64,000 bases of DNA from Blastocystis sp. Blastoise (taxonomy: Eukaryota; Protista; Bigyra: Opalinata): positions 992,001-1,056,000 of the forward strand of contig JBBPEB010000034.1 of assembly GCA_039096225.1 (NCBI GenBank), given 5' to 3'. The notes under the pieces were generated by a model that worked only from the letters and a program-made list of their open reading frames with translations, searched no databases and was not told the origin of the DNA. The stretch's first letter is position 1, and the number at the start of each line of letters is the position of its first letter. Position numbers and translations under genes: made by a program. Below are positions 1 through 22,773 of the stretch, one piece after another.

Positions 1-627
1 AAAGATATTATTATTCAGAATGATACTGATACGATCCAAACAAATGCATCTAAATTATGTACTGGATATATAAATGGATCATATTATCCTACATTTAGTT
101 TTCCTTTATCGGATAAATATGTTACTTATAGTAATATAAATTCTCCAATCACAATTGATCATAATATAGATTTAAGATTTGATGAATTATTCAAAGGAAA
201 TATAATTTGTAATATATGTGAACCGAATGGTAGTGATATACGTTTCAAAGCTTATGATGAAGTGTATTGTGATTTTAGTACAAGTAAGAATTTAATTTAT
301 GAATTGAAGAAAACCAATGTGTATGGATATCAATACTTAACGAATATACAAATTATATCAGTGTATGGTCAATCCACTGATTACTTATATCCTATTTCAT
401 TAAGATGTTTTACTAATGAATATGAGAATAATATTCATGTTATTGATACTACAAATCTACCTTATTACTATTCGAATGGTATTAAATATGAAGGTATATC
501 CAATAAGATCAATAAGAATGTCTATTATTGTAATCGTAAATTATTAAAGTTATTACCTCATGATAATATGTTCTTTATAACATGTGATTATCCTTGTGTT
601 GTTTTATTAACTATCTCTTATATATAA
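1..627 (+). CDS. Viral hypothetical protein, 5'-truncated by the window edge
   Basis: Frame 1 is open from base 1 (KDIIIQNDTDT...) to TAA at 627 and has no introns. The ORF track's 262 start is an internal GTG. Confidence 0.7.
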   Translation, partial: KDIIIQNDTDTIQTNASKLCTGYINGSYYPTFSFPLSDKYVTYSNINSPITIDHNIDLRFDELFKGNIICNICEPNGSDIRFKAYDEVYCDFSTSKNLIYELKKTNVYGYQYLTNIQIISVYGQSTDYLYPISLRCFTNEYENNIHVIDTTNLPYYYSNGIKYEGISNKINKNVYYCNRKLLKLLPHDNMFFITCDYPCVVLLTISYI

Positions 628-699
628 ATATTTTAATGATATATTTAAATTTAAAAAAAAAATGTTTTGTTATATTATTCATTTAAAAATTATTAAAAA

Positions 700-1122
700 A
701 TGGAGCCTAAATCTGTATCTGAATCCTTACATTCTTTATCAAGTACAAGTTCAACAAGTTCAGATAGTTCAACAACAACCACATTATCAGAAGAAGAAAT
801 AGAAAAGAAAAATACTTTATTAGAATTTATTATAAAAGCTATAAAATGTTTATTTGAGAAATCAACTGAATTCTTTCAATTAATTGTTAAAAATATAGAT
901 ATTCATTGTAATTGTTGTAATCCACAAACAAAGAAAGTCTATTATAAGACAATGAAAATACAACAAACTATTATTGAAGAAGAAGTCAAACATATATCAG
1001 AAGTCTTGAATGAATTAGAAGAAATTGATTCTAATCAAAATGAATCAATACAAGAATTAGCTGTTCAATTAATGAAATTAAATATAAGTGTTGATTCTAT
1101 TGTTCAATCTCTTCATTTATAA
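700..1122 (+). CDS. Viral hypothetical protein (Ser/Thr-rich N-terminus, amphipathic helix, CNCC motif, C-terminal coiled coil)
   Basis: 140-aa ATG-initiated ORF with coding-like composition; no family recognised. Confidence 0.7.
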   Translation: MEPKSVSESLHSLSSTSSTSSDSSTTTTLSEEEIEKKNTLLEFIIKAIKCLFEKSTEFFQLIVKNIDIHCNCCNPQTKKVYYKTMKIQQTIIEEEVKHISEVLNELEEIDSNQNESIQELAVQLMKLNISVDSIVQSLHL

Positions 1123-1449
1123 TTCTATGAAATGTTATAAAATATTAATAATAAACAAGCGTTTCACGACTGGCTACGCCAGCCTACGCTTGAATCTAAA
1201 TAAACATAAAAAAATAATTTGTAAAAAGACTATCTTTTCATTATATAAAAATTATTTATTTCAAATTTTGTTTTATTTTATTAATATTATCAATAATCGT
1301 TTCATAAAAAGAAAATTAAAAAAAAAAAATTAACAATATATAAAATAAAGATTACATTCTATTTCATTAGTAAATATATTTAAATACTTTAAAAACTTTT
1401 ATTATTGTACATAAAATATAGTCTATGCAATAAATAAGTTATTATAAAA

Positions 1450-3800
1450 AAACTCTAAAAAACTATAACATTTTGAAATACATATACTCACTTTTATTAA
1501 AACGAATTTTGTGCTAATATACATATATATTTAATTTATTATTTTAATTTATAAAGAATAATTTGAATCTCTTTTATTTAAAGTCACAATTACAAAAAAT
1601 GAGTTCTTTTGAAAGACACAAAACATTCTTTAAACAATAATAGTTTTGTATTTAGTGACAAAAAAACGTATTATACGGTTTTAGAAACAATTAAAATCAT
1701 TTTACCCATTTTAACATTCCTATCAAACAGTCAACCATGTTTAATTAAACTAATTTTTAATATTTTATGTTCTATAATAAGTCTATTTATTATTTTAATA
1801 AAAGGTAACTTGAATCTCTTGACTTAACTATTGTAATTCTAAAAAAATAATTTTTTGAACAACTTAAAATATTTATTTGTTGTAGATTTTAATATGAAAC
1901 AGTTAAAAAACACTCTATACATACTTATTACAACCATTTTAGAAAAATAGACTCATTTTAACATTTTATTCAAACACACAACCACCTTTATTTCAAACAA
2001 TTCTTTAATTATTATAAACATTAAACACTCTAATACTCATTTTTACAAAAAGTGTATTGAATCTCTTTACTTAAGACAGTCAAACGGACAATTCAAAATC
2101 ATTTTACCCTTTAAACTCATTATAAAGTAATAATATTTATACAATTGCTTTGATATGTGATTTAGGACACATTGAACTACTTTTTACAAAATTTTGAGTC
2201 AACATTTCCAGTTTGTCATTCACTCGTCAACTCCACTTTTGACTGATTTTTTGAGAAATGCAATACATATGTAGTCTAGTTTTCAAATATGTAAAAATTA
2301 ATTGTCAAATATGAATTTGATTTGTCAACTTTCGGAAAATTTTTAGAAAAATGATTTTTCAATTTTCAGTTTTTTAACATGTTATACTATTGACTCTACT
2401 AAACTCATTTCTTAATTAATTTTGAATATTAAAATTTATATTATTAATATGTTTTATTCTCTATATTTATTTGTTATAATTATATAAAATAATTAAATAT
2501 TGACTGAGAAATTAATGTTATAAAGTATACCCTTTTTTCAAAAAATAATTTTTTTATGTTTTGCATATATAATTTTTTATCTCAAAAGTTATTTTATATT
2601 TTGATAATATTTTTCTAAATATATAAACTATATGTTATCTAGTTTATAAATAAGTTTTATTTATTTTATTTAAATTAATATTGATGGAGAAATTGTCAAA
2701 ATAAACTATAGTATCAAAAATGCTTTCTTCTTTTTAAACGACTTATTTCACTAATTAAAGATTTTTAAAAACTAATTTTCTTATTTAAAGCTTATTTATG
2801 ACGTTCACAACTCATAATGACTGATAACTTACTTTTTAGAACAAACATTGTCTGTATCAGTTCAACATGTTGTCTTAACTTTTGTAAATGAGTGACATAT
2901 AGTGTCCACGAATGATTCTAAACACTAATTAAAACGTTTTAAGAGTTTATTAAGTTAACATTGTCTGGTGATCTGTTGTCAAAGTCTTTTAAAAACAAAA
3001 TAAAATAATAAAATATGTTTATTTTGATATGTAGTTTTTGAATATAGTGTCAAATGTCAAATATGCTTGTTAATGATGAAAATATAAACAAAAAACAAAT
3101 GAAAAATTTTTAACAAAATTTTCGAACGTCATTTTTTTATTGAGTTTAACTATTGTCTCCTGTGACTTCATTTTTTAATATTTTAAAAAAATGGCAAAAA
3201 CGGATGACATTTAGGTCGTGCTATATCTAAATAAGCTTTAACTTTATTATTTTATAAAATATTGACTGAGATCTGATGATAACAAAATATACCATTTTTA
3301 GAAAAATTTCATTTTTATGTTTTTAATATAAATTAACATATCTCGGTCAATATTAAATATTAAACAAAAATATAAAAAACGGATGACATTTAGGTTGTCT
3401 AATATCTAAATATGTTTTTATTTTTATTATATATTGAATATTGACTGAGATCTGATGATAACAAAATTGGGTATCAAAGATGAAAAATTTTTATAAACAA
3501 ATATTTTCTTATTAAAAGATATAATTAAAATATAAAACATATTTATGACGGATATAGAGTTAACTAAATACATTAAAGCTCAAATAAGTTTATTAAGAAG
3601 GAATGTGTTGGATATCAGTTTGTCTTTTGTCGTTATTTAAAGGAATTATTGCTATTTCAGAGTAGTTAAAGTCATCTACATTACGCATGTAATCATTTTA
3701 GAGTTTAAAGTTAGTAATGTGTGTATTGATATGTTGTCAAGTTGTAAATATAAACAAATTTACCCGTCAAAACTATTTAATAGACCAACCCGTCAATAAA
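1450..3800. repeat. Diverged tandem-repeat non-coding region (about 247-bp, 180-bp and 760-bp periods)
   Basis: TTGAATCTCTT at 1563/1810/2057. CATTTTAACATT at 1707/1954. AAAACGGATGACATTTAGGT at 3197/3376. A 30-bp identical block at 3259/3438, with related copies at 2497/2678. Confidence 0.75.
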
Positions 3801-4180
3801 AGTTAATTTTATAAAAATAAATATAAAGAATGTGAGTAGATATAGGAAAAATAAGAAAACAATAAAAAATGAAAAACGAAAAATAAGTGTTTTTATAAAA
3901 ATGAAGAATATTGGATAAAATAAAAATAATCCAATAATTTTGGTTAAAATTTTGTGCGAAAATGGTTTTTTGCGTTTTTTAGCCAGAAATTTAGACTTTT
4001 CGAAAAATTTCTTTAACAGCCATTTTCAGAATTGTGTTCCGGATTTTATGATGTTATTTTTATTTTATAAAAGCTAATAACAAATTCAATAAAGGTGAAA
4101 GTGTGTGAGACACCGTACGCTACATGAACTAAATTAAGGATATTAATTTGTTTTGTTTATAAATAATTTAATTTTTAATA

Positions 4181-5977
4181 ATGCAATCAACAGGTTATTC
4201 AGATAAAGATTGTGAAGAATTCTTTACAAATTGTATAGATCAATTATTACATTGGAAGAAAATACAATTATCAACAAGTATAAATTGGAAGAAATGGATC
4301 AAGACAATATGTAAGAAATTTCGTAATGAAGAACGAATTCAAATAGATGATATGGAAGAACCGTTCTTTTGTGTAGAAGTGTTAACAGATCCATTTCAAT
4401 TTCAAAATGTTATGCAACATACACAAACAGAAGCTCCTGGACAACAAGGTGGATTATCCAATACTACTGTAGCTAATTATATGCAAATGATTACTTATAT
4501 AATGAAGAATATATCTATTTGTACAGATGATGAAGATATCATTAATTATAAAGCATTTACTCCACAAAATATAAAGAAATGGGAACATTTATGGGGTTCT
4601 TTACAAATTGATGCTACTTACTCAAGACATTATGAAATCACTCAGAAAATTATTAATTGTGAAGCTGATTGGGGAGAAATCATTAATATCACCAAAAAGA
4701 ATTATTTAGAGAATCCTAATGATTTATATTATGTGAATAGTTATTTATTAGTTTTAACTTATGATACACTCTGTGCTCGTAATGATTATAATGATTGTGT
4801 AATCTATACTCGTGGTCAACAAATTCCTTTATCGTTAAGAAGAACAACTAATTATATTGATTTAAATACTTTAACTATTCATGTGAATGATACAAAAAAT
4901 CGATTTGAAATTGGTAAGAATGAATATCCTACTTATCAATATTTATCAGAAGAATATTTGAATGTCTTAGCTAGATCCTTACGTTTATTTCCAAGACATT
5001 ATTTATTTGTTACTGAAAATGGTGGTAAAGTACGTGATTTGAAATTTGGTGATGAATATATAAAACCCCATTTAGGCTGGATTTATAAAACACAACAGAA
5101 TAATTCTTTAATTAATGGTTGTGATATTATAAGACATTTATTTGCTCAATATTATTATAGATTATCAAGAGAAGCACAATTCCAACATAATGATTCAGAA
5201 CACGAATCTAAAGGTGTAGAACTGTTTGAAAATTCGATTATGAAGATGTTACATAGTCAATCAACACATATGGAAAATTATATATCTCCTTATTTATCTT
5301 CTCATTCAACTAAATTGCAAGATTTAGATAATAAAACAAGAACATTTCATATTGATATGAATAATATTACTTATACAAGAGAAATTAATCAATTAAATAA
5401 ATTATTATTTTTATGTAAACGATTTAATGATCGTATAGAACAATATGAAGAAGACTATGAAGATGTATTTGGTAAAGAGAATTTCAATATGAAATCAGAA
5501 TCGATATTAAGTAGTCTAGAACAATATTCATCAGATAATGATACTATAATGATTACATTAAGATATTATAAAGATCTATTAAAGCATAAGTATCCTGATA
5601 AAAACGATTTAGAAAATGAATTACCTGTAGGATGTTCATTAGAATCTGAAGAAGTTCCAGAGAATTCTAGAGATCGTTATAATCGTTTTATACGTAATAA
5701 ACAATTATTACCTGATCATTTACATAATAATACAACGGATTCAGAATTAACGAATACTCAAGCATCTCTTATGCAACAAAATACTCAAGATGAAAACTCT
5801 ACACCTATAGTTATGAATAATTCAGATACTTATGCATTACGTAGTCTTTCTACTATGCCTCCTTTAGAACCTATTCATCGTGGTCATGGTTTATTGAAAA
5901 AACATAAAGGTAATGCATTCTTTAAAGTCAAAGTCCCTAAAAAACATTTTCATGGAATTCAATTTAAATTTTATTAA
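4181..5977 (+). CDS. Tyrosine recombinase/integrase (PLV/virophage type) with a long C-terminal extension
   Basis: Catalytic motifs in order: ARND (R), NYI..., NDTKN (K), YLF, DIIRH (R), MLHS (H), HMENY (Y). Confidence 0.75.
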   Translation: MQSTGYSDKDCEEFFTNCIDQLLHWKKIQLSTSINWKKWIKTICKKFRNEERIQIDDMEEPFFCVEVLTDPFQFQNVMQHTQTEAPGQQGGLSNTTVANYMQMITYIMKNISICTDDEDIINYKAFTPQNIKKWEHLWGSLQIDATYSRHYEITQKIINCEADWGEIINITKKNYLENPNDLYYVNSYLLVLTYDTLCARNDYNDCVIYTRGQQIPLSLRRTTNYIDLNTLTIHVNDTKNRFEIGKNEYPTYQYLSEEYLNVLARSLRLFPRHYLFVTENGGKVRDLKFGDEYIKPHLGWIYKTQQNNSLINGCDIIRHLFAQYYYRLSREAQFQHNDSEHESKGVELFENSIMKMLHSQSTHMENYISPYLSSHSTKLQDLDNKTRTFHIDMNNITYTREINQLNKLLFLCKRFNDRIEQYEEDYEDVFGKENFNMKSESILSSLEQYSSDNDTIMITLRYYKDLLKHKYPDKNDLENELPVGCSLESEEVPENSRDRYNRFIRNKQLLPDHLHNNTTDSELTNTQASLMQQNTQDENSTPIVMNNSDTYALRSLSTMPPLEPIHRGHGLLKKHKGNAFFKVKVPKKHFHGIQFKFY

Positions 5978-6021
5978 TTTTAAAACAAAACAACTTTTTA
6001 TAATAAAAAATAAATATATAT

Positions 6022-9000
6022 TTAATTTGGTATAGCATATAAAGTATTATCTATTAAAATTCGTTTTGTTGATGACGTATTATGATATTGATCTTCACTA
6101 TAAACAATTTCTTCTTTCTTAGATAAACAATTGGATAAACAGAATAAATCTGTATCCACACATTCATTATAAGTATTATCAATCATTAAACCACAAATAC
6201 CAATAGCATTCCCTCCCTTATAGAAATTTGAAGTATGTTTTCTATGAATATTCACAATATCTATAGAATTGAATGTATCTTTACTACTTAAACAACCAAA
6301 TAAAGCATTTGTAAATTTATCTAAATCCTTCTTAATCGTAAATTGATTATTATTATTCACTTTCTTATAACTATTAAAAATATCTTCAATAGTAACTACA
6401 TTCAAATAATAAGGATCTATAGTCATATGGTTATCAACAAAAGATTTCAAATCATATCCTTCTGTACTACGATCAAAGAATCGTTTCTTACATTCACTTA
6501 TATGATATTCATTATCTAATTCATGCATATCTAATTGCATACTAGAATAGAAATAATTACTTACTAGATAACTAAAGATAATAGAACGATTCTGATAGAA
6601 TTTATCGGATAGAGTATAATCCATTTCATAATGATTGGGTTTCAATCTCTTTTCTACTGTCTGTTTACGTTTCGGTAAATTATGATCTACATAATCTTCA
6701 TATAAATTAGCATTACCAGGAGGGAAATAACGACAACATGAAGGTAAGAAACACACTCTTCTTTCAATAGGACCAGCATTCACAGCAGTAGGTTGAATAT
6801 TACTTGTCATAAATAAAGTACCCGTGAAATGAACTTTTGTAAATATATTACTGAATAATTTACGAGCACTAGCACCTTCTTTCTTTTCTGCTATTTCTTT
6901 AAATACTTTAGAAGAGAATGGATTAAATGTTTTCTTTCTACCAGTAACATCTTCTTCTATTAATTCATTCATATAATACATTGTTTTATTAGACATATCT
7001 ACAATCTTAGGAGCTATAGATGTTTCTTCTAAATTATCTGGATTTACTATAATACATTGATTACTACCTACAATACGAGAAATTAAATCAGTTGTTATTG
7101 TTTTACCATTACTACCTGTACTACCATATAATATATAAGAAACAGTTTTCTGAGTATTGACATAGAAAGCAGTGGTTAAGATACGTAACATAATACTTTC
7201 ATATTTCTTATCGAATTCACAATATCTTGCAATATGTTGTTCAAATAATTGGATAATATCTTTCTGTTCATTATTAATATTCCAACTGACATTAAATTCA
7301 GTATCAATTAATAAATCTTCAAATACCATATCTTCTTTATGATATGGTTGGATATAATATTGTCTAGGATCTTCTTCTGTTGATTCTTTTGGATATAAAT
7401 AACCAAGTTGTGTATAGATAACACGTTCTTTATGAACCATATACGTATCTAAATATTCTTTATAAGATTTACCATAAGTCTTCAAATAACGATTCAACCA
7501 TTCTTTATAATGATATTCATTAGTAACAGAAGCAGACATTATTTTATCAACTATTTTTTGATGTTGTTCATTCTCTTTAGAATATAATCTTGATAATTTG
7601 AATTTCTCTACAATCGATTTCATAAATGTAGTTATTTTGGTTTCAAAGAAATTAATATCATAATTATTCTTACAACGTCTTAAGATATTATATTCATCAA
7701 ATGTATATAAGATAAAATTATCTTTATCTAATATAATGGAAACAATTTCATTAAATTCTAATAATTGAAATAACATAACTAATGTTTGTGAATCTACAAG
7801 ATTAAAGGATTGAATACATTCTAAAATAGACATAAATATGAAATCATTATCATCATCTTTATTAAATAATTTATTATCCATTAATATCTTCAAAATATAA
7901 TTATTCGATAAATGAGTAGGATCAACTTGTATATGATTCCATGTAGATTCAATTACATCATCACTTCGATCATGACCATAACGTAATGAATAATTTTTAA
8001 ATAATTCTAATCCTCTTGTTGTATTACAAATCTGTTTTGCTGCACAACATAATTTATACCAAGTATTATGAGATTCAAAATAATTCATATCTTCAATAGA
8101 ACCAATCAATAATAAATATCGTTCTAATAAAGCTTCTTTAGATGCTGTAGTATCCAATATAGTATCTGTAGAAATCAACATAGGAATATCTTTAATATCT
8201 TGTATAGAACATAATATAGTACGTGAACAATTATTTAATCTTGCATAATAACGTTTATAACGTGAATATTGTTTTAATTTATAAAAGATAATAGGATTAA
8301 TAATATCACTTATAATATCATCTTCATTCTTATAATTCAATAATGTTTTGAAATAATAATGTTCATCGATTTCTCCTTCTATTTTCTTCCATGATTTATT
8401 TGTATATTCTTCGTATAATTTATAAGTAGATGGAGAATTATCTTTACTACAACCAAGAAACATACAACCATTATTCTTTCTTGGTTTACCAATAACATTA
8501 TAATCAATGAATTCTTTTATATCTAAATTATTCATTTTACATAAATCAACCAATTTTGTATTCAGAATCATACTATTATATAAGAAAAATAAATAATCAC
8601 CATTTACAAACCAATTTGTATATATGTGAATTCCCCATGAATAATGTATTTCATTATGAACTGTCTTCTTATTCACTTCTTTCTTTGTATACACAAGCGA
8701 AATAAATTCTTGATTATAATAATGAATACAATGATTACATATTTCTTCAATAAATTCATGAATAAATGAATCTGTTAGAAAAGAAAAATCATTTGATATT
8801 TGGTGATAATCTAAATCAAACCATAATCTTCTATAATTAGTTGATGTATTACAAGGAGTACAATCAATATAATGTAATAATTCTTTTGGATTTTGGTAAT
8901 TAGTAAATAGACTTTTATAAAATGGTAATGGATTTGGTATAATAATTTCACTATGATTATCTTTTGAATTATCATGATTAAAGGAACCAAAAGTATAAAC

Positions 9001-9024
9001 AAAATGAATTTGTGAATTTTCCAT
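6022..9024 (-). CDS. D5-like primase-helicase (AEP + PriCT-2-like + SF3 helicase)
   Basis: AEP motifs WFDLD, WGIHIY and DYNV...FLGCSK. PriCT-2-like segment HNTWYKLCCAAK...LELFKNYS. Walker A YGSTGSNGKT, Walker B YYMNE, motif C FMTSN, Arg finger ERRV. First ATG is at 9024 (MENSQ). Confidence 0.9.
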   Translation of the reverse strand: MENSQIHFVYTFGSFNHDNSKDNHSEIIIPNPLPFYKSLFTNYQNPKELLHYIDCTPCNTSTNYRRLWFDLDYHQISNDFSFLTDSFIHEFIEEICNHCIHYYNQEFISLVYTKKEVNKKTVHNEIHYSWGIHIYTNWFVNGDYLFFLYNSMILNTKLVDLCKMNNLDIKEFIDYNVIGKPRKNNGCMFLGCSKDNSPSTYKLYEEYTNKSWKKIEGEIDEHYYFKTLLNYKNEDDIISDIINPIIFYKLKQYSRYKRYYARLNNCSRTILCSIQDIKDIPMLISTDTILDTTASKEALLERYLLLIGSIEDMNYFESHNTWYKLCCAAKQICNTTRGLELFKNYSLRYGHDRSDDVIESTWNHIQVDPTHLSNNYILKILMDNKLFNKDDDNDFIFMSILECIQSFNLVDSQTLVMLFQLLEFNEIVSIILDKDNFILYTFDEYNILRRCKNNYDINFFETKITTFMKSIVEKFKLSRLYSKENEQHQKIVDKIMSASVTNEYHYKEWLNRYLKTYGKSYKEYLDTYMVHKERVIYTQLGYLYPKESTEEDPRQYYIQPYHKEDMVFEDLLIDTEFNVSWNINNEQKDIIQLFEQHIARYCEFDKKYESIMLRILTTAFYVNTQKTVSYILYGSTGSNGKTITTDLISRIVGSNQCIIVNPDNLEETSIAPKIVDMSNKTMYYMNELIEEDVTGRKKTFNPFSSKVFKEIAEKKEGASARKLFSNIFTKVHFTGTLFMTSNIQPTAVNAGPIERRVCFLPSCCRYFPPGNANLYEDYVDHNLPKRKQTVEKRLKPNHYEMDYTLSDKFYQNRSIIFSYLVSNYFYSSMQLDMHELDNEYHISECKKRFFDRSTEGYDLKSFVDNHMTIDPYYLNVVTIEDIFNSYKKVNNNNQFTIKKDLDKFTNALFGCLSSKDTFNSIDIVNIHRKHTSNFYKGGNAIGICGLMIDNTYNECVDTDLFCLSNCLSKKEEIVYSEDQYHNTSSTKRILIDNTLYAIPN

Positions 9025-9109
9025 GATTATTTGACTTATAAATAATGAAAATAAATATGGTATAAAATTCAAAACAAATAATATATTAAAGATTCTAGAA
9101 GTCAGTTTT

Positions 9110-9241
9110 AGAAGCTTCTAGAACATTCTAGAATATTCAGGAACATTCTATAATAGTAAATATTACTTTATATTTTTAAATGTTCTAGAACCTTCGAGAA
9201 CATTCTAGAACCTTCTAGAACCTTCTAGAACCTTCTAGAAC
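9110..9241. promoter_or_regulatory. Two heat-shock-element arrays (8 and 12 in-phase inverted nGAAn units) upstream of the primase-helicase
   Basis: 9110-9149: aGAAgcTTCtaGAAcaTTCtaGAAtaTTCagGAAcaTTCt. 9182-9241: gTTCtaGAAccTTCgaGAAcaTTCtaGAAccTTCtaGAAccTTCtaGAAccTTCtaGAAc. Confidence 0.8.
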
Positions 9242-9350
9242 ATCATTTTTATACTTTAGTGTTTTAAATGTATATACAATAAACAAAACAATTTTCAATG
9301 ATTTTTTACAAGTTTATAAGTAAAACTAGAAAAATAAACAAGAAAAATAA

Positions 9351-9974
9351 TTAAATTTCAATTGGTTCTTGACTATTAATATATGTACATGAATGAGGCC
9401 ATCCATTTTTATCATATAAAATACCATCCCAGAAATACATTTGTTTTGAAGGATCTCTTTTAATCTTGTTAATACTCTTAGCATGAACAACTTCATAAGA
9501 ATAAACTTTACCTTTTTCATCATAAAGGAATCCATCTTCCATATGGAATTTCATAATATCAAAATCATCATCTTTAGAATTCGAATGTTCTTTAGAATCT
9601 TCAGAACATAAAATAGTAGTTCTATCACTTTCTAAAAGATCTTCAGTATTGATAATATCTTGAATATCTTGTTCTTCATTAAGTTGTTGAGTATAAATAT
9701 CAGCAGCGAATTCTTCATAATCTTCAAGACCTTTAATAACCGCGTTTATACGTTTTAAAGCTGATCTATAGTTTTCGACTTCGAAAGAAGCAAGACGTTC
9801 TTTAGATTTTGCAATACCCAATAGATTCTTTTCTCTATTCAATTGAGACTGATGTAAATCAATATCACGAAGAACATTCTTATGAACTTCAACAGCCTTC
9901 TTAGAATTCTTAAGAAGTTCCATACGAACAGTTTGAAGACATTTACGGGAATCAGCAGAAAGATTAAATTGCAT
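9351..9974 (-). CDS. Viral hypothetical protein with an N-terminal coiled coil
   Basis: ORF from ATG 9974 (MQFNLS). Heptad-like N-terminal half; C-terminus has two DG.LYD..G repeats (DGFLYDEKG, DGILYDKNG). Confidence 0.75.
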   Translation of the reverse strand: MQFNLSADSRKCLQTVRMELLKNSKKAVEVHKNVLRDIDLHQSQLNREKNLLGIAKSKERLASFEVENYRSALKRINAVIKGLEDYEEFAADIYTQQLNEEQDIQDIINTEDLLESDRTTILCSEDSKEHSNSKDDDFDIMKFHMEDGFLYDEKGKVYSYEVVHAKSINKIKRDPSKQMYFWDGILYDKNGWPHSCTYINSQEPIEI

Positions 9975-10084
9975 TATAATCGCGAATATCGTTACAGAGA
10001 GAAAATTTGTATTTATCAAAATGAAATAAATAATACATTTAAATGGAATATTAAATATTCTAGGAGACAGTGTAGAATCTCTAT

Positions 10085-10256
10085 GGAATGTTCTAGAAGG
10101 TTCATTTGATTGGCTAATTTTGTCGACTTAGCATTTTTTATTTGTGTTTCAATGACGAGTATAGTCGGCATCTGTAATCTGATTGGATAAAAAAATTAGT
10201 AAAACACAATTAGACGATGACAACGATGTGTCATACGAAATAAGCTATTTTATTGG
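10085..10256. promoter_or_regulatory. Divergent promoter with a 4-unit HSE and three ATTGG (CCAAT) boxes
   Basis: gGAAtgTTCtaGAAggTTCa at 10085-10104. ATTGG at 10109, 10182 and 10252. Lies between divergent ORFs. Confidence 0.55.
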
Positions 10257-10372
10257 CTTATTTTCCAGCTGGAAGCAATAGGCTTTTGTTAGCAACTGAA
10301 ATGAAGAACTGTACACTAAAAATAGTATATTTAATATATTGTATAAAAATACTTTTGAAGGTTTAAATAATC

Positions 10373-10900
10373 ATGGAAATTCCTGATAGTCTTTCTGCCA
10401 GTTTATCCCCTTTCGGTCAAGCCATGATATCCCCCTTGTTGAATCCATTTGAAAATAGTGTTTCTGCAAATCCTATGGCTTTACCCAATGATAATGATTT
10501 CTGTTTTAATTCGCGTGACGAAATCATATTTGAAGATCCACCTCAAGAAATTCATCCAATCAATGATGTTTATGTATCTAAAAATCCAGATAGATATCAT
10601 TCGGTTAACAATCAACCAATACAATTTCAAGATCAAGTAAATACAAATCCTAATAAGCAAGCATTATTATTTACAAATGAGGAGTTAACAAATATATCCA
10701 GTCAATTCGAATCTTTATTTCAAACTATGGAAACAGCTGATAATATATTAAATAGTATTTATTGTACTGTTGATCATTTAAAAACAAAGATTGAAAGTCA
10801 GAAACAAGATTTGAAACAGATTCATGATGATTCTAAAGAAATTGTTTCATTATTATCCGAATATTCTATTCCTTCTATGTCTGAAATATTTGATCATTAA
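10373..10900 (+). CDS. Viral hypothetical protein with a disordered N-terminus and C-terminal coiled coil
   Basis: 175-aa ATG ORF; Pro/Ser-rich start; heptad pattern LTNISSQF...IVSLL. Confidence 0.75.
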   Translation: MEIPDSLSASLSPFGQAMISPLLNPFENSVSANPMALPNDNDFCFNSRDEIIFEDPPQEIHPINDVYVSKNPDRYHSVNNQPIQFQDQVNTNPNKQALLFTNEELTNISSQFESLFQTMETADNILNSIYCTVDHLKTKIESQKQDLKQIHDDSKEIVSLLSEYSIPSMSEIFDH

Positions 10901-10990
10901 TTATTTTTATTTAATTAATTATTTTGTTTTGTTTATTTTTTTTTAATTTAATTTCACAAAGTTTAAATGGAAAATAGAATAGTTTCAAAT

Positions 10991-11098
10991 AGAATTCTTG
11001 AATGGTCTAATGGATCTATTAAAGAAATATGTAACTACAGTATCATGGTTCGATTCCGTTAAAATGTTTCCATTAGATTATTCAAGTGTTCTTTTTTT
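10991..11098 (+). ncRNA. Putative Pol III (type 2 promoter) panhandle RNA with VA-RNA/vault-RNA-like architecture
   Basis: A box TGGTCTAATGG (11003-11013), B box GGTTCGATTCC (11047-11057) and T7 terminator (11092-11098). The 5' end (10991-11014) pairs with the 3' end (11069-11092), including G-U pairs. Confidence 0.7.
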
Positions 11099-11145
11099 CT
11101 AGAACCTTCTCGAACATTCTAGAACCTTCTAGAACCTTCTCGAAA
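11096..11145. promoter_or_regulatory. HSE array (10 units) upstream of the SSB-like gene
   Basis: tTTCtaGAAccTTCtcGAAcaTTCtaGAAccTTCtaGAAccTTCtcGAAa, ending about 75 bp before ATG 11221. Confidence 0.8.
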
Positions 11146-11220
11146 ATTGATTCATTTGAAAAGAATATCGTAAAATATTAGTATTAAAATACTTATATTT
11201 TTACTAAATACTTAACTAAA

Positions 11221-11814
11221 ATGTCTTCAACTGAATTTAAGAAACCTGCTATTCTTGATACTTCTAACTTTAATTTACAATGGGATGACACCAAAGAAAA
11301 TGCTGTTCTTTTAAATAATAATCATCGTGTATGTATTTCTACTGATGCTACACCATGTTTATTTGGTTATATTGTTACACGTGACAAATGGACTTTATTA
11401 ACAATTGAAGATGATAATCAAGTATTCTTAACTGCTTATAAAGAACTTTATCGTAAATTATGTGAATTATGTCCTGATGGTGATATTGTTAATTTTGTAC
11501 GTATGGATAATGGTAAATATAAGATTACAATTAAAGTACCTATTAATGCATCGAAGAATGTTACTATTGATATTACTGATAAAAGAGATAAGAAGATTAA
11601 TATCGGTAAAGATCCTAAGTTAACTTACGAAGAAATACGTGAAAAGTATATTCCACCAAATACGTTATGTAAAGTATTATTTACAATACATGGTATTCAT
11701 CGTTATAATAACAAGTATTATATTGGTTTATATGCTCGTTCTATTAAAGTCATCGATAAATCTACGAAGAATACTAATAGTAATGATACTATTATTGATT
11801 TAACTAATTTATAA
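11221..11814 (+). CDS. Probable viral single-stranded DNA-binding protein (OB fold, NCLDV/T7 gp2.5-like)
   Basis: About 200 aa. ISTDATPCLFGY and YYIGLYARSIKV resemble recalled motifs of this SSB family; short acidic/hydrophobic tail. Not searched. Confidence 0.55.
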   Translation: MSSTEFKKPAILDTSNFNLQWDDTKENAVLLNNNHRVCISTDATPCLFGYIVTRDKWTLLTIEDDNQVFLTAYKELYRKLCELCPDGDIVNFVRMDNGKYKITIKVPINASKNVTIDITDKRDKKINIGKDPKLTYEEIREKYIPPNTLCKVLFTIHGIHRYNNKYYIGLYARSIKVIDKSTKNTNSNDTIIDLTNL

Positions 11815-11889
11815 ATTTTTAATGTTAAATTTATTTTTTATTAATATATTTGTTTTGTTTATAAATAATTTTATAATTGAAATAAAAAA

Positions 11890-13518
11890 ATGCAAAGTTG
11901 TATATTAGGAATGCCAAGTCCTGGTACTTTTGGTATGAATTTAATTTCAACTGGAAAAGAATATAGGCGATATAATACACAACCATTACATAAAATGGAT
12001 CAATATAATCCAATATTTCATGAAATAGGTCCAAATTCATCTATGCCTGTGTCTACTTTAGAAAGTAAAGAAATACATGATGGTAAAGAAGATGATTATG
12101 TAGATCGTTCTAAAACATTTGGTAAAGATGCTGTTCCACAAGGAAATGGTGCTTTAATTCGTGCTAGAGCAGCAGGTAAAGGTGTAATGAAAGCAGCTGG
12201 TCCAGAAGAAGATAAAATAGATGGTGAAGATCGTCAATATAAAGTATTAAATCCATGTAAACCAAGACGTAAATCTGGTAGAGGAATTATTCCAAATAAA
12301 TCAGAAATCAATAAATTAGAGAATAATCAAGGTTCTGGTATTGGTGATGCAATTAAAAATAAAGTAAAAGATATGTATCAACGAAATGTATTAGATATAA
12401 GAGATGCTATTGTAGATAAGAAAGCAAATAGAAAAGCTCGTGATGCATTAGCTATTTTAGCTCAATATGTTGGTGACGGTCATCATGATCTTGATGATGA
12501 ATTCAAAAGATTCTATGAACATAAAATTAAACGTGGTGGAAAAATTCCTATATCAGTTGCTTCAGCAATTATGAATGCAATCAAAAATAAGAAAATAATT
12601 AAGAATCCAAAATTAAGAAGAATGTTAAGACCTTCAATTATACCAAAATATATAGATTTAGATTCAGCTCAAAGTGGTGATGGTATATTAAGAGTAAAAA
12701 GAGGTGGTGGATTCTGGAGCGGATTAATGGATTATGCACCAGCTCTATTAGGTGTAGTTGATAAAGGTATGGATTCTTTTGCTAAAGGTAGAAAAGCTTA
12801 TTATGATACACATTTGGCACAACAATCAAGTGAATTAAATGATATGGAATTTGAAATGGAAAAATTAAAACGTCAACAAGCATTAAATGAAATGAAAAAA
12901 CAAATAGGTTCAGGAAATACTATAAATAAGATGTTTGAAGGATATTATGATGTAGCTGATGAAATGCAAGATGCTCTTGACGAAGATGATAGATTACATC
13001 CACAACCCGTTGTTCAACCTCCACCACCTCCACAACAACAAGTTGTTAGACCTCCTCAACCTCAACCTCCTCAACCTTATAAACCAATGTCTCGTGATGA
13101 ACAAAGTTATCCTTATAAGATTTATGGTTTCCCTCAAAATGATAAAGAGAAAGTCGATAGAAAATGGAAAGAAGATGAAAGGGATAAACGAATAGCTGCA
13201 AGAAGAGCTAAACGTAGAGGATATGGTGGTCGAGTTAAATTAAGTAAAGAAGAATTCTTAGAACGAATGAGAAGAGGAAAAGAAGCTAAAAAGAAAAGAG
13301 GTGGTGAATTACCTCCATTGGTAACAGCTTATACAGATTTTGTAATACCTGCACAAGTAGAACAAAGGAAACGTAAAGTAGCTAAAAATGATTTAAAACA
13401 ATTGCAAATTATAAAACAGAAAATGGATAATAATGAAATATTAGATAGAGGTGAACAAATGTTTTGGAAAGAAAAGAAGTATATGTTATCAAAAAACTCA
13501 GGGGAGGGGATCTGGTAA
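11890..13518 (+). CDS. Basic core/DNA-condensing-like precursor with repeated G-x-G / GG putative protease sites
   Basis: K/R-rich with a Pro/Gln tract. Motifs SGRGI, QGSGI, KRGGK, SGDGI, KRGGGF, IGSGN, YGGR, KRGGE, SGEGI. Lies directly upstream of an adenain-like protease. Confidence 0.65.
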   Translation: MQSCILGMPSPGTFGMNLISTGKEYRRYNTQPLHKMDQYNPIFHEIGPNSSMPVSTLESKEIHDGKEDDYVDRSKTFGKDAVPQGNGALIRARAAGKGVMKAAGPEEDKIDGEDRQYKVLNPCKPRRKSGRGIIPNKSEINKLENNQGSGIGDAIKNKVKDMYQRNVLDIRDAIVDKKANRKARDALAILAQYVGDGHHDLDDEFKRFYEHKIKRGGKIPISVASAIMNAIKNKKIIKNPKLRRMLRPSIIPKYIDLDSAQSGDGILRVKRGGGFWSGLMDYAPALLGVVDKGMDSFAKGRKAYYDTHLAQQSSELNDMEFEMEKLKRQQALNEMKKQIGSGNTINKMFEGYYDVADEMQDALDEDDRLHPQPVVQPPPPPQQQVVRPPQPQPPQPYKPMSRDEQSYPYKIYGFPQNDKEKVDRKWKEDERDKRIAARRAKRRGYGGRVKLSKEEFLERMRRGKEAKKKRGGELPPLVTAYTDFVIPAQVEQRKRKVAKNDLKQLQIIKQKMDNNEILDRGEQMFWKEKKYMLSKNSGEGIW

Positions 13519-13610
13519 AGAGTAAAGATGAGAAACTTATTCAAAATTCAATGAATTGTGATAATCCTATTATATCTGATAAAACTCGTCATGTTACTCC
13601 TAGATCCCCT
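13491..13610 (+). other. Putative programmed -1 ribosomal frameshift signal
   Basis: In-phase A_AAA_AAC at 13491-13497, a 7-nt spacer, then a stem pairing 13505-13532 with 13585-13610. The -1 frame is the protease ORF. Confidence 0.75.
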
Positions 13611-14084
13611 GATAATTTTAAACAAACTCTATCTCAATATTGTAATATACCCAATTCTTTAATATCTCAATTATATAATTATGCTTATTTAAATAAACCT
13701 ACCTCTTCTGTTGCTTGTGATCGTGCTGAAAATGTTATGAAACAATTAAATAAAACAAATTCTCAATCTTATAATTATTATAATAGTTATGATGATTTTG
13801 AACAAAATATAGATCAAGATCAAACTAAATTTAATATGATCTTTCATGAAAGTCCTAGTGATCCTTATAATGGTCATTTTGAAGCTGTTATTTATAATGG
13901 TAATAAAAACATAGAACACTATTCATCATTAGGAAATAAACCTACTTTTTCAAAATCATTTATTCAAAATCATAATATTCAATATAATCCTATTCAACAC
14001 CAAAAAACTACAAGTAATGCAAATGGTTGCTTTTATTATTCTTTACTTTATTTACTTTCTAATGGAAATCTTATGCCTTGTTAA
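13497..14084 (+). CDS. Adenain-like (Polinton/PLV-type) cysteine maturation protease; -1 frame relative to the core ORF; first in-frame ATG at 13551
   Basis: NGHFEAV (catalytic His), HYSSLG (FDSFG-like position), IQYNPIQHQ (oxyanion Gln), NGCFYYSLLYL (catalytic Cys). Same order as adenovirus/Polinton proteases. Confidence 0.75.
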   Translation, partial: LRGGDLVKSKDEKLIQNSMNCDNPIISDKTRHVTPRSPDNFKQTLSQYCNIPNSLISQLYNYAYLNKPTSSVACDRAENVMKQLNKTNSQSYNYYNSYDDFEQNIDQDQTKFNMIFHESPSDPYNGHFEAVIYNGNKNIEHYSSLGNKPTFSKSFIQNHNIQYNPIQHQKTTSNANGCFYYSLLYLLSNGNLMPC

Positions 14085-14087
14085 AAC

Positions 14088-14107
14088 CTTCTAGAATATT
14101 CTAGAAT
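14088..14107. promoter_or_regulatory. HSE (4 units)
   Basis: cTTCtaGAAtaTTCtaGAAt upstream of ATG 14171. Confidence 0.65.
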
Positions 14108-14170
14108 CTCTAATTTATTATATTAATATTTTGTATAATTAATTTGTTTTGTTTATTATTTAATACTATA

Positions 14171-14326
14171 ATGACAAAGAAACGATTTGGCAATTACTAC
14201 TTAGATCGTAGTGCAGAAACTTTAGAGAATGTAAATGAAATACTGTCAGTTATTGAAATTGTTCTTATTATTATATATATTTTACTTTACTTTTATATGT
14301 CCAAGAAACGTTCTAGAACATTCTAG
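14171..14326 (+). CDS. Small single-pass membrane protein (51 aa)
   Basis: MTKKRFG... with hydrophobic ILSVIEIVLIIIYILLYFYM followed by basic KKRSR; has its own upstream HSE cassette. Confidence 0.55.
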   Translation: MTKKRFGNYYLDRSAETLENVNEILSVIEIVLIIIYILLYFYMSKKRSRTF

Positions 14327-14334
14327 AACATTCA
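14310..14334. promoter_or_regulatory. HSE (5 units)
   Basis: gTTCtaGAAcaTTCtaGAAcaTTCa, overlapping the stop of the 51-aa ORF and upstream of ATG 14429. Confidence 0.65.
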
Positions 14335-14428
14335 TTTTGAACTGGCTCTATTTGTAGAATCTTTAATTTATTATATTAGTGTTTTATATAATTAATTTGT
14401 TTTGTTTAATCATTGGTTAATTTAAATA

Positions 14429-14803
14429 ATGAACAAGAAATATCTTAGTTATTCTTATTTTTGTCGTGTGATGAAGAATCTAAAAGAAGAAGGAATTAAA
14501 TCTAAAAAGAATGAAATAGCGAATCTATTAGAACAATTTTTAAATAACAATAACAGCAAAAATCTTAGTGATTTACAACTAAGTTATTGTAGAAATATGT
14601 TACTTTATATAGATGATCCTGTGATTCATCAACGTCTTGAAATGCTATTGGATAAACAATATATGAAGAATGAGAATCAATATCAAGATGATAAGAATCT
14701 TATTCAACCCAATAATATGTTTATGCCTACTATGAAAAGTAATCAACAACAAAATCAATACCAAAATAATAATAATAATCTATCTTTCTTACCTTTTAAT
14801 TAA
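14429..14803 (+). CDS. Viral hypothetical protein (helical, Q/N-rich tail)
   Basis: 124-aa ATG ORF with an upstream cassette shared with ORF 14171. Confidence 0.65.
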   Translation: MNKKYLSYSYFCRVMKNLKEEGIKSKKNEIANLLEQFLNNNNSKNLSDLQLSYCRNMLLYIDDPVIHQRLEMLLDKQYMKNENQYQDDKNLIQPNNMFMPTMKSNQQQNQYQNNNNNLSFLPFN

Positions 14804-14876
14804 TTTTTATATCCTTTTATTACTAGTTGTTTAGTTATATTCAAAATTAAAACAAAACAAACATAAAAACATAAAA

Positions 14877-15812
14877 TTATTCAATTAATTTTTTAAATAA
14901 ATTATTATTTTCTAAAGATACATAAGAATTAATATGTGTATAATCATTATGACATAAAGCAGAAGCAGAATTTTCTATATCTTGGAATGTATTGGTTGTA
15001 GTTGTAGCATATAATTTTCTTAATGCATTAATGGTTAATTTTGGATGGATTTGTTTTAAATGCTTATTCACAAACCAATCAAATGCTTTAGTAGTAAATC
15101 CAGTTCTTACAGAAGATTCAAATATAAATTTACGATTTGGATTTCTTTTTAAGAGTAATTCTAGATCTTCAATCAATTCTTTTGGTGCATCTAATTGAAT
15201 TGTAGAGTATTTACCAGCAGTTTTATAATCATTCAATAGAATAGAACCAGTGTGTTTCTCTTTATCATAAACAATATAATTCTTATGAATAACTGGATCA
15301 ATAGTGTCTTCTGGAGTTAGAATGAATAATTGAGCATAATCAGCACGAGCAGGAGGAAGATAGGAGTAAAAATCTAATATTAATCGTAATGGATTATAAT
15401 TTTCTAATTTATCGTGATATTCATGTAAATATGGAGTCGTAATACCATCTTTAATAAGATCTTGAATCAAAGTGCGTTTCTTATTATCCAGATATTTTTC
15501 ATACATAGAATTGATAATCACATAAAATTCACACCATTTATTTAAAATACCTTCTTTATTTAATGAAGAAACATTACGTATAATAAATAATATCAATTCA
15601 CATAACGATTTCATTGGACTAATTTTGATTTTACGTTCATTTACCATATAATCCATGAATGAATAAGGATTCTTTAAGAATTCTGAGAATTTTTTAAATG
15701 GTAATGGGAAAATATATAAGTTGAAATAATTGGTTAAACGTTTTTTCCAAATATCAGAATAATTTGAATTCTGTATAACAGAAAGATACTTGTCATAATT
15801 TGTATTTTTCAT
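14877..15812 (-). CDS. Second tyrosine recombinase (PLV/virophage/NCLDV type)
   Basis: LPPARADY (R), NYIVY, LNDYKTAGKY (K), FIF, NALRKLYAT (R), ALCHN (H), HINSY (Y). First ATG is at 15812. Confidence 0.85.
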   Translation of the reverse strand: MKNTNYDKYLSVIQNSNYSDIWKKRLTNYFNLYIFPLPFKKFSEFLKNPYSFMDYMVNERKIKISPMKSLCELILFIIRNVSSLNKEGILNKWCEFYVIINSMYEKYLDNKKRTLIQDLIKDGITTPYLHEYHDKLENYNPLRLILDFYSYLPPARADYAQLFILTPEDTIDPVIHKNYIVYDKEKHTGSILLNDYKTAGKYSTIQLDAPKELIEDLELLLKRNPNRKFIFESSVRTGFTTKAFDWFVNKHLKQIHPKLTINALRKLYATTTTNTFQDIENSASALCHNDYTHINSYVSLENNNLFKKLIE

Positions 15813-15899
15813 TGATTTTCTCAAGTAGAATCTTTAAAACTTCTATTTTCAAAAGAATAATACATAAGAAAATCAAAATAAAATATCTAAGATTCTCAT

Positions 15900-15949
15900 G
15901 TTCTCGAATGTTCTAGAAGTTTCGAGAATGTTCTAGAATATTCTAGAAA
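15900..15949. promoter_or_regulatory. HSE array (10 units) upstream of the second tyrosine recombinase
   Basis: gTTCtcGAAtgTTCtaGAAgtTTCgaGAAtgTTCtaGAAtaTTCtaGAAa, about 88 bp upstream of ATG 15812 (minus strand). Confidence 0.8.
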
Positions 15950-16547
15950 ATTTATATTTTTCCATAACGGTTACCCTTGTTTCCAAAAGTCTCTCGTTAT
16001 AATCGTGGTGGTGGGTACATCTTTTTACAAGACCACACCACCACCAGCTTTTCTTTCACCCACTATAAATACATACCTTGATCACTTTACTCTTTTTATA
16101 TAATTTTTTTATGATTATCATGACTTTTTATATTATTTATTGATCACTATACATACATTTTTATTTTTATATATTCCCGTGATTATTTTTATTATTTCTT
16201 TTTAGATAGAACCATCCATTTCATCTTTTCTCTATATAAAGGGAGGGTCGGGGTGTGTGTTTATTTAGCACATTCTGTGCTTCTTTTCGTATTTCTTTCT
16301 GTATTCCCGTGATTATTTTACTCACTTTACCAACGATGGAGTCATTTTCCATGAATATTCCCTGTAAAGGGGAGGGTTGGACTGTGTATTTTATTTCTTT
16401 TATGATTACTATGAGTTTCTCCTTGATCACTTTACGTTTCACGTTGGAATCGGAACACAAATAAATTAAAAATAAATAAACATGGGAAAAAATAAATACA
16501 CACACACACTACCCTACACTCCCATGGTTATTTTACTTCAGAAATGT

Positions 16548-16673
16548 TATTAATTCTTCCGTCGAGAACAAAAAGGGGGGATGACTTCCCCGCTTATGGC
16601 TGCGCGCGTCGCGCAGACTCTATGCGGGGTTTGCATACCCCCTTCTGCAGTTCGAAGAACGGAAGAATTAATA
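16548..16673. repeat. GC-rich imperfect palindrome/hairpin at the inferred provirus end
   Basis: Nested arms TATTAATTCTTCCGT/ACGGAAGAATTAATA, GAAC/GTTC, AAGGGGG/CCCCCTT, CCCCGC/GCGGGG, CTGCGCG/CGCGCAG. Confidence 0.9.
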
Positions 16674-17831
16674 TAAATTACCAGATGATGTAACCCTGTT
16701 CATATTTTCTTCAGGTGGTTTTCTGGTTAAAGAATCTGAATCAATCAAAAGCATAATAGGTTATGACTCCATTTCAACTCTCAACTTATATATATGTTTA
16801 GTATGATTTATTATATATTATATATCTATTTATATATAGGTACAATTAAGATGTCAATATAATAGTGAAACACTATTTTGCCATTGTACATGTAAATAAA
16901 TATTTTATTATATATATATATATATTTTATATAGTTCCACTATGGAATATATTTGGAAAAGAACAAAAACTTGCATGTGGATCAGTTCATTTCGACTGTA
17001 TATTGAATTAATTTTTGTTTTCAAACAATAAATCTATTGAATTATCACTTTTGTATATAGATACATGTGATCTACATCAATTTCTAATGTCATACAAAAA
17101 CTATAAAGTTCGTATCGACATTATTTCTTTAGAATGTATGTTATATTTTCATCAATTAGTTATTTATTCTTTCAAAATGATGTTTATAGACACAAAACAG
17201 ACTATATGTATTGAATATGACTCACGACCATGCAATTCTAGAGTATTTTATAATATGAAAAAGCTGCAAATAAGCTGTATATATATTTATTATTATTAAA
17301 TTATATTTATTTTGTATAGTGGGGGAACTGGATCGAACAGCTACAAAATATTTACAACAACTTTTAGAATCCTCCTTTTTTGTTTGTGATAATATTGTTA
17401 TAACAGGTATTTATTTTATTATTATATATTATTTATATAGGTGAAAAAATTCCTGAATGGGTACGTACATCTCTTCAATACGTATCAGGCATAAAAAATA
17501 TTAATATAAATTGGGACTTATCATGTATTATTTTATTTTTAATATATAATATCTCCATATTTATAGTACACACAATATTTGACTATGAAATATTACCTAA
17601 TATAAATGAAAATTCTGTGGATGGTATATATATATATATATTTTCATTATGTGCTTTGTAAAATATATTCTAATTACTATAGTAAATCTTCAGACTCCAA
17701 TGCCTATACAGAACAGCTCTCCAATATCATTAATAAGTGTTCAGTCAATAAATTCTATTATGGAGAATAAATGCATTTATGACCCAATTAAAGGTATGTG
17801 TTATGATTGTATTGATTAAAAAACGATTTAG

Positions 17832-20933: not shown

Positions 20934-22773
20934 TTAATGACAATATTTTTTAGCTTCCATCGTTGTTGGTTTATGAATAAATAAATCAGTTCTATTAATT
21001 AACGTGACATCATTTTCTCGAAGTATATTAGTATAAGATTCTCGAATACCTCTATGTGACAAAGGTGTACTCGAAAGCATAGAAAGAAAACTAAGCATAA
21101 CATCATCAGTATGTGTATAACAATCCAGATAGGGTAATATATGCATATGTTTATTAATAACATCTTTTGAAAATAACATTCCAGGACCATCCGCAAATGG
21201 AATAAAATAAGGAATACAAAAAGCAGGTGTTGAATGTTTAAACACTAACGATTTATCAGGATAAGAAACAAATTTACGACCTAAATATAAATTTGTTTTA
21301 GGTTTTTTTTCTAGAATAGAATATAAAAAGTAGACATTTAAGCATATATCATCATCCGTAATCATAATAAATTGTGTATTTGATTTCGACATAAGAAATA
21401 GATCCTCAATCATAAATGTTTTTAATGTATTATTTTGATAATTATCAACAATATTAGCAACAATAATATCATTATGCGATTGTAATTCATTATTAAAAAT
21501 TTCTTCTTCTTTTTTTGTTGCATTTTCTTTAACTCCACTAACGAAATAAACTATATATTTGAAATTATCATTTACATGTATAGATTTCCATGTTTTTCTT
21601 ATTAAATCACGTCGATCTTGATATACATATCCAGTTTTAACAAATATAACGACATCATAATTATCAAATAAATCAGATAATTGATTAAATACTGGAAAAT
21701 GAAGAAATGTGAATCGTATGTTAACAGGATAAATATTAATAACCTCATGATAACTAATATCATCCTTAATAGTACTAATACCTTTTCTATAACTACTTAT
21801 ATATTTAATAGTAGATTTATTATCATAATATTGAAGTGGATTTTGTGTAGAATAATATACTTTCCATAATGATGTTTCTGGTTTATTCTTATATATAGAA
21901 GAAATTTGTCCACATAATAAATCACCTTCATTATAAGAAGTAGATATATTTAATTCTAAAAGAACATTCTTTGCTATATCCAAATAATTCTTTGGATATA
22001 TATGTATAAATTCATTTCTTTGATTGTATCTTTTTTCAATTTTATTATAACATATTTTTTTATTTCCAAATCGTTTACAATATTGCCAAATAGCATCAAC
22101 ATCTTGACCTTTTAATAAAGTATCTAAGGTTTCTTTATGTAATGTATTATTCTTTAAATTTAATTTTAATTGTCTTTGAGGACGATTCATAGCTAAGAAA
22201 TCATTACCTAATTGTTCATAATTATAATATTCCACAAAACGTATTTCATTTAATGTTCTCATTTGATTTTCCCATAGAGTTTCAACAGTTGACAATGAAG
22301 AATTTAAAGAAAGAGAAACTGATGGTTGAGAAGATTCTTTAGAATGCTGTAAATTATTATTTGGATTTTCTATTGTCTTGAGATCTATTGGAATAGAATT
22401 ATTGACAATAGGAGTGTCTACAGGAGTAGAAATGATAGAAATGGTTTTGTTGGATACAGAATCTTTAGTAGTTTTATCGCTACTATGTTTAGATAATACA
22501 GACGATAATTCTGATTGTATGGTATTAATCAAAAGATGTTGCTTATTCAATTCTCGAGTTCCATTGCGTAATTTCATTTGAATTACTATAGCACATTATA
22601 GAAAATAAATAGTTCAGCATACAATAGTTAGTTGAAAAATGACTTTGAGCCAATTCTTGATGAAAAACTCCAAGATTCAACACAAGATTTGGTAGATATT
22701 CTTGAACATACCAACGTACCCATACTGTAAAGATACAAACAGCAATGAGTGTTATCACAATCTTGAATTTCAT
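20934..22773 (-). CDS. GT31-family beta-1,3-galactosyltransferase-like type II membrane protein (2 exons; intron 22586-22622)
   Basis: RRDLIRKTW, DIIVANIVDNYQNNTLKT, FIMITDDD, GPGMLFS, DDVML. The N-terminal signal-anchor exon joins in frame across a 37-bp GT-AG intron. Confidence 0.9.

Follow-up and report, generated by a model that had tools for sequence, protein, structure and literature searches.

The window, that is, the whole 64-kb stretch of Blastocystis sp. Blastoise DNA that was analysed, carries in its first 16.7 kb a multicopy element that continues beyond the left window edge. Within this element, a Pol III small RNA gene of 103–108 nt (hereafter the unit) is predicted at 10991..11098 on the + strand, based on promoter boxes, a terminal stem, fold statistics and a terminator. 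It begins 90 nt past the stop codon of an upstream element gene (10373..10900, +; 175 aa; 16 distinct cluster sequences, 14 of which were compared and found to be 96.0–99.4% identical) and is followed by a downstream element gene (11221..11814, +; 197 aa) that resembles small proteins of large DNA viruses according to DUF5871/DUF2738 leads, DUF2738 being taken by us to denote an ssDNA-binding protein. Positions 11890–13518 encode a basic 542-aa protein with many GxG/RGG-type words and an RGGGFW stretch, which brings to mind the core precursors that adenain processes in adenoviruses; a look for strict M/I/L-xGG sites in this protein gave none. It is followed by a gene for an adenain-like cysteine protease (13551..14084, +; 177 aa). 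The Peptidase_C5 assignment of the latter is a lead and not a direct profile match (Atlas hits 0.94–0.96, with Peptidase_C5 on 13–62% of their members); the His, Gln and Cys residues are invariant in 4/4 sequences. On the opposite strand lie a primase-helicase-like gene (6022..9024, -; 19 members), labelled partly from motifs and with a weak DUF5906 match in a relative, and, near the right end of the element, a tyrosine-recombinase-like gene (14877..15812, -; weak Phage_integrase match, E 0.084). A second gene with tyrosine-recombinase-like motifs, for which there was no Pfam hint, is located at 4181–5977.

Further features were observed towards the two sides of the element. At its apparent right end, a G+C-rich branched hairpin (16549–16680, z about -5.5) is bounded by imperfect inverted arms (16523–16562 and 16659–16698) and may represent a terminus or recombination site. 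On the left, a stretch of about 3 kb without long ORFs (1123–4180) contains 120-nt direct repeats (1704/1951 and 3168/3347) as well as a 15-bp stem (3258–3354) and is a possible origin. The host part of the window includes a galactosyltransferase gene and an intron-split DnaJ/GYF protein gene (20934–22577 and 26607–31476), whose product we take to be RME-8-like.

The genes flanking the unit recur in about 20 syntenic copies with consecutive locus tags among the Blastocystis sp. Blastoise protein clusters (19 members for the primase, 21 for a 598-aa gene and 16 for the 175-aa gene). For the gene truncated at the left window edge, 20 members are spread over four clusters. Sister copies are 94.6–99.7% identical to the window proteins (59 comparisons, covering a subset of the members), and at one sister locus the tags 000662, 000661, 000659, 000658 and 000656 follow the order of the window. 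The element is young, multicopy and resident in a gut protist. That about 20 near-identical copies have kept their ORFs intact speaks against a decayed relic. The unit had initially been annotated as lying inside a provirus. This is borne out by the surrounding element, which is of the Polinton-like/MELD type, occurs in about 20 copies and has a protease lead, except that neither a major capsid protein nor a packaging ATPase was identified in 1–16700, the element extending further to the left. The term provirus would therefore draw on the protease, replication and recombinase genes, the copy number and weak matches of the left-edge gene to MELD-virus and minor-capsid folds, obtained with a low-confidence model. 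As a lead, the adenain-like protease would mark the element as Polinton-like and adenovirus-related. At least two further diverged element families in the same genome (two of them with primase identities of 38–40%) and relatives in ENA/Logan assemblies, on contigs of up to about 26 kb, were detected (P0007, P0008, P0024 and P0142; P0006, P0002–P0004 and P0126–P0141); these apparently form an undescribed group of the primase-helicase type. A different, PolB-type MELD virus is reported from Blastocystis data in the available text of PMC8502044.

Both sides of the unit are marked by recurrent motifs. Upstream, a TTTGTTTTGTTT motif is located at 10923..10934 (+), about 25 nt past the upstream stop codon. 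Nine of the 16 TGTTTTGTT sites in the window fall within the 16.7-kb element (663, 4149, 5992, 9290, 10925, 11851, 14145, 14398 and 14859), and seven of these nine lie 18–61 nt past a same-strand stop, convergent gaps included. Given this position after element ORFs, the TTTGTTTTGTTT/TGTTTTGTT motif probably marks the 3' end of the upstream mRNA, so that the hairpin described below would fall outside that mRNA. We presume that TGTTTTGTT resembles the Blastocystis downstream gene element. Counting against its reading as a 3'-end signal, the known Blastocystis downstream element is not enriched in tortoise-clade genomes, according to the available text of PMC10690189. Downstream, the terminator of the unit is abutted by a TTCnnGAA array (11095..11144) that precedes the next gene. 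We take such arrays to be heat-shock-element-like. Arrays of at least two nnTTCnnGAA repeats occur six times in the window (9114–9143, 9181–9240, 11095–11144, 14087–14106, 14309–14328 and 15899–15948), invariably in the element upstream of its genes and never in the host part, a distribution that suggests stress-controlled activation of the element.

An A box, TGGTCTAATGG, is located at 11003..11013 (+), within the 5' arm of the terminal stem and at +13 of the unit, and a B box, GGTTCGATTCC, at 11047..11057 (+). Both match the Pol III type-2 consensus at all positions (11/11 for TRGYNNARNNG and 11/11 for GGTTCRANYCY) and are separated by 33 nt, the classical spacing of these boxes being 30–60 nt (PMC12498455, available text). 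No other strict B box exists on either strand of the 64-kb window. This B box lies 34 nt before a T7 run (11092..11098, +), the predicted Pol III terminator, which is the sole run of at least four T in 10951–11160. The A box, the B box 33 nt further on and the T7 terminator of the initial annotation were thus all found in place. As estimated by Markov simulations, a lone strict B box is expected 1.1–1.6 times per window and is hence not rare, whereas an A box combined with a strict B box at a distance of 25–60 nt is expected only about 0.01 times per window, the two simulations of 12 Mb each having produced 1 and 0 such events. The unit contains no T4 before the terminator on the + strand and one T4 on the - strand. 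Only 115/862 intergenic 101-nt windows of the element are likewise free of T4, but so are 345/1000 box-preserving shuffles of the unit, which makes its absence a modest feature.

The arms 10997–11014 and 11069–11086 pair over 18 contiguous base pairs, including two G-U pairs on the + strand (11004 and 11005). This agrees with the earlier description of the pairing, in which the only two mismatches at the DNA level were both read as G-U pairs on this strand. Folding extends the stem beyond a U-U mismatch as far as A10991-U11092, which adds a third G-U pair (10995) and gives 23 bp in total, with a 5' arm (10991..11014, +) of 5 bp, the U-U mismatch and 18 bp and a 3' arm at 11069..11092 (+). Because of this extension, the 5' end of the predicted RNA is paired and its 3' end is an oligo-U tail. 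Pair probabilities in the terminal stem are 0.93–1.0, with 0.75 for the end pair. The central domain (11015..11068, +) is weakly structured, and an alternative central fold with a 4-bp tRNA-like T-arm (11045–11059) costs only 1.7 kcal/mol. The + strand folds with -31.9 kcal/mol (z -6.1; 0/200 dinucleotide shuffles as good), and the z-score is -5.4 when both boxes and the T run are kept fixed (0/1000 shuffles as good). In these 1000 box-preserving shuffles, the longest stem measured 15 bp, compared to the 18 bp observed. The 18-bp stem is also the longest uninterrupted one with a loop of at most 70 nt in 1–16700, where just one other reaches 15 bp.

The stem begins 12 nt upstream of the A box and finishes exactly with the T that opens the terminator, which puts promoter, structure and terminator into a common frame. 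The start of the small RNA is placed at A10991, a purine that follows a pyrimidine at the base of the stem. The two breaks of the DNA inverted repeat coincide with positions 2–3 of the A box; as a consequence, the mirror arm lacks an A box, which is present on the + strand only. Folded as DNA, the two strands are alike (-13.4 vs -12.9), whereas folding as RNA favours the + strand (-31.9 vs -23.6). The G-U pairs had initially been taken to point to an RNA with defined polarity. Both mismatches are indeed G-U on the + strand, but they are weak evidence on their own, since they sit next to each other and a transition produces a wobble on one strand or the other at about even odds; moreover, the - strand also folds well (-23.6 kcal/mol, z -4.7).

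No tRNA was found at the unit with ARAGORN, and the arms of a tRNA could not be assembled from it (acceptor 2/7 pairs, D stem at most 2/4, only a 4-bp T-arm possible). An Rfam search over 3 kb around the unit produced no match on it. When 151 nt were searched, 10 matches were obtained at E<=10, among which there were no tRNA, VA or vault models; the best scores came from generic miRNA-hairpin models and were sub-threshold (24 bits vs 100). A tRNA gene was rejected on these grounds (no cloverleaf, no ARAGORN prediction, no tRNA model at E<=10), in line with the initial statement that the sequence does not fold as a tRNA.

Searches with four protein queries retrieved no related DNA from IMG/VR and none from GTDB. 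A single JGI metagenome locus matched by protein queries was rejected as a bacterial false hit. Scanning IMG/VR with a strict pattern of the layout gave 0 matches, and all 8/8 matches to a looser pattern were ordinary tRNAs. No second copy of the unit was found in the window. None of the sequencing runs recorded as RNA was found to contain the stretch, and three runs were guessed to be RNA. A 576-nt contig from run X1, guessed to be RNA, spans the downstream gene from about 11218, and one change in it matches the sister protein P0001, so that the gene of a sister copy is present in X1. The unit is not covered by contigs of runs X1–X3, which is uninformative because contigs of this kind miss short RNAs.

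The boxes, stem and terminator constitute a real, non-random Pol III gene architecture, and judged from these features the unit may with good confidence be regarded as a Pol III gene. On balance, we favour the view that it is a minihelix RNA gene read by host Pol III, whose product would act as a structured RNA and not as a source of guides, likely as a dsRNA decoy. Following established Pol III biology, TFIIIC would bind the A and B boxes, and host Pol III would start near A10991 and stop in the T run, yielding a hairpin RNA of about 105 nt. In this product, the 5' end would be paired, the 23-bp stem would contain wobble pairs and a short oligo-U tail would follow, which is the shape that exportin-5 carries in VA RNA (minihelix RNAs such as VA1 are listed as exportin-5 cargo in the available text of PMC4030889). 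With rising copy number of the element, this RNA could become abundant and might titrate a host dsRNA-handling protein, such as a Dicer-like, export or sensor protein. In the literature excerpts covered, no report was found that establishes Dicer or Argonaute in Blastocystis, so the target of the decoy is a guess.

Alternatively, Pol III might produce a precursor from whose terminal stem a guide of about 22 nt is diced to silence mRNAs of the host or of viruses, in the manner of BLV pre-miRNAs or mivaRNAs. The 23-bp stem with its 3' tail is suited to such a role, the generic miRNA-hairpin models gave the best Rfam scores, albeit far below threshold, and the terminal stems of VA RNAs are Dicer substrates (PMC7589676, available text). 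However, none of six arm 22-mers (0/6) had a site better than shuffles (fractions 0.56–0.97; targets within the 64-kb window only), 54 nt would be a large inner part for a pre-miRNA and host RNAi is not established, which makes this explanation unlikely.

Quite unlikely, too, is a function at the DNA level, along the lines of the TFIIIC insulator put forward in the initial annotation, in which a TFIIIC site would shield the adjacent heat-shock-like promoter from read-through or silencing and the RNA would be a by-product. Boundary activity is known for tRNA genes and B boxes. The unit sits between the likely 3'-end motif and the TTCnnGAA array, into which the T run passes straight, but the other five TTCnnGAA arrays have no adjoining B box, and the 18-bp stem and the terminator would be left unexplained.

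We consider it improbable that the unit is a functionless remnant of a captured tRNA gene, a SINE or a miniature inverted-repeat insertion. The tRNA-like box spacing and the possible 4-bp T-arm could be residues of such an origin, and PLVs carry tRNAs (558 in 8300 genomes; PMC12220804, available text). Yet the acceptor, D and anticodon arms are gone while the boxes are perfect, which is the reverse of neutral decay; in addition, the window holds no second copy, and the stem uses the A box, as no tRNA does. Just as improbable is a DNA cruciform or mRNA 3'-end hairpin with coincidental boxes, because, although hairpin-based mRNA ends are known in giant viruses and virophages and further hairpins with z < -5 occur in the AT-rich DNA of the element, comparable stems are not found after any other element ORF, most ORFs have the separate motif downstream, and a pair of A and B boxes is expected about 0.01 times per window.

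If the structured-RNA gene favoured above is transcribed, its product would extend the range of viral Pol III small RNAs, being built like VA RNA but standing outside the VA family. The viral non-tRNA Pol III RNAs in the cited literature (VA, EBER, TMER and BLV), as far as the available texts go, all belong to animal viruses. A comparison of 8300 PLV genomes with Rfam lists tRNAs, introns, snRNAs, snoRNAs, miRNAs and rRNAs, and no VA-like or vault-like class appears in the available part of its main text (PMC12220804); a search of the literature retrieved no report of a VA-like or vault-like RNA in Polintons or PLVs. It is conceivable, though doubtful, that VA-type Pol III decoys are carried by protist Polinton-like viruses, and that RNA counter-defence of the VA type is recurrent or ancestral in the adenovirus-Polinton lineage and directed against a dsRNA or RNAi defence of unicellular eukaryotes. 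If true, finding a gene of the VA kind in an element of a protist would inform the question of how VA RNAs originated and would suggest that Blastocystis has an antiviral defence at the RNA level that has gone unrecognised. The reading is directly testable, given the approximately 20 copies and the diverged families in one public assembly.

For comparison with adenovirus VA RNA, a single locus was fetched from IMG/VR (L003; Rfam RF00102, 104 bits). The pattern by which it was found had been modelled on words of VA RNAI; its retrieval is therefore circular and not evidence. This pattern gave three matches in IMG/VR, namely the VA RNA and two identical stretches without an Rfam hit. The A and B boxes lie at +13 and +57 in the unit and at +14 and +59 in L003, with gaps of 33 and 34 nt, respectively. 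Over the first 30 nt, 20 positions of the unit are identical to L003, compared to 11–18 in six in-register tRNA controls, a post hoc comparison with one VA sequence. Eight tRNA controls had been taken, two of which (L010 and L011) were dropped as off-register; of the six retained, L006 and L012 are identical. Global alignment of the unit with L003 gave p values of 0.0005–0.03 (five scoring schemes, two box-preserving nulls; likewise post hoc), local alignment gave p 0.17, and a common 9-mer p 0.02–0.025. Beyond the boxes, the letters shared with L003 are mostly found where the Rfam VA consensus differs.

The hallmarks of VA RNA given in the available text of PMC7589676 are a box A in the terminal stem, a box B in the apical stem, the GGGU-ACCC pairing, four U and a length of about 160 nt, the apical stem and GGGU-ACCC being the PKR-inhibiting parts. 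In the unit, both boxes are intragenic, the A box lies in the terminal stem and the predicted 3' end has at least four U. GGGU and ACCC are both absent from it, and the approximately 160-nt VA architecture of apical stem, central domain and terminal stem is not matched by its 108 nt, the centre of which is weak. The RF00102 covariance model, which detects L003, gave no match to the unit at E<=10 (151 nt). Membership in the VA family was rejected for lack of an Rfam match and of GGGU-ACCC and on account of length (108 vs about 160 nt). Descent from VA RNA was judged unlikely, since the shared letters are off-consensus and one tRNA control reaches 18/30; a common ancestor of the two is barely credible. 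The VA-like architecture proposed initially thus holds for promoter geometry, terminal stem and terminator and fails for length, apical stem, GGGU-ACCC and the RF00102 model. As the likeness is post hoc and concerns one sequence, it is read as convergence from a tRNA promoter: the unit is probably convergent on VA RNA and would have arisen from a host tRNA promoter independently of it. Such an origin has also been proposed for VA RNA itself (PMC7589676 and PMC6599070, available texts), and wobble-rich stems are described as a solution on which VA-I, EBER1 and nc886 have converged for binding dsRNA sensors without activating them (PMC6599070, available text).

With VA RNA (RF00102), the unit accordingly shares nearly the same box offsets, an A box in a wobble-containing terminal stem, the oligo-T end and an adenain-encoding lineage as carrier. 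It differs in its length of 108 nt against about 160 nt, in lacking apical stem, tetrastem and pseudoknot, and in its protist host and G+C content of 28–29%. Pol III boxes of type 2 are also attributed, in the available text of PMC12498455, to the viral small RNAs BLV pre-miRNAs, EBERs and MHV68 TMERs, all of which, in contrast to the unit, come from animal viruses. In BLV, the B box is located past the terminator, whereas that of the unit lies within the predicted RNA, and TMERs have a tRNA body that the unit lacks. PLV tRNA genes, which are also flagged in a figure legend of PMC8502044, are likewise Pol III units inside a PLV but possess the cloverleaf absent here. The remaining comparison is with vault RNA and nc886, from which the unit differs in matching no Rfam vault model and in residing in a virus-like element. 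In vault RNA and nc886, a terminal stem encloses a loose centre, and the unit has the same arrangement. Both boxes of a type-2 promoter are also shared, and the length of the unit falls inside the 88–140 nt given for vault RNAs in the available text of PMC7904556, so that the predicted RNA is in size closer to vault RNA than to VA RNA.
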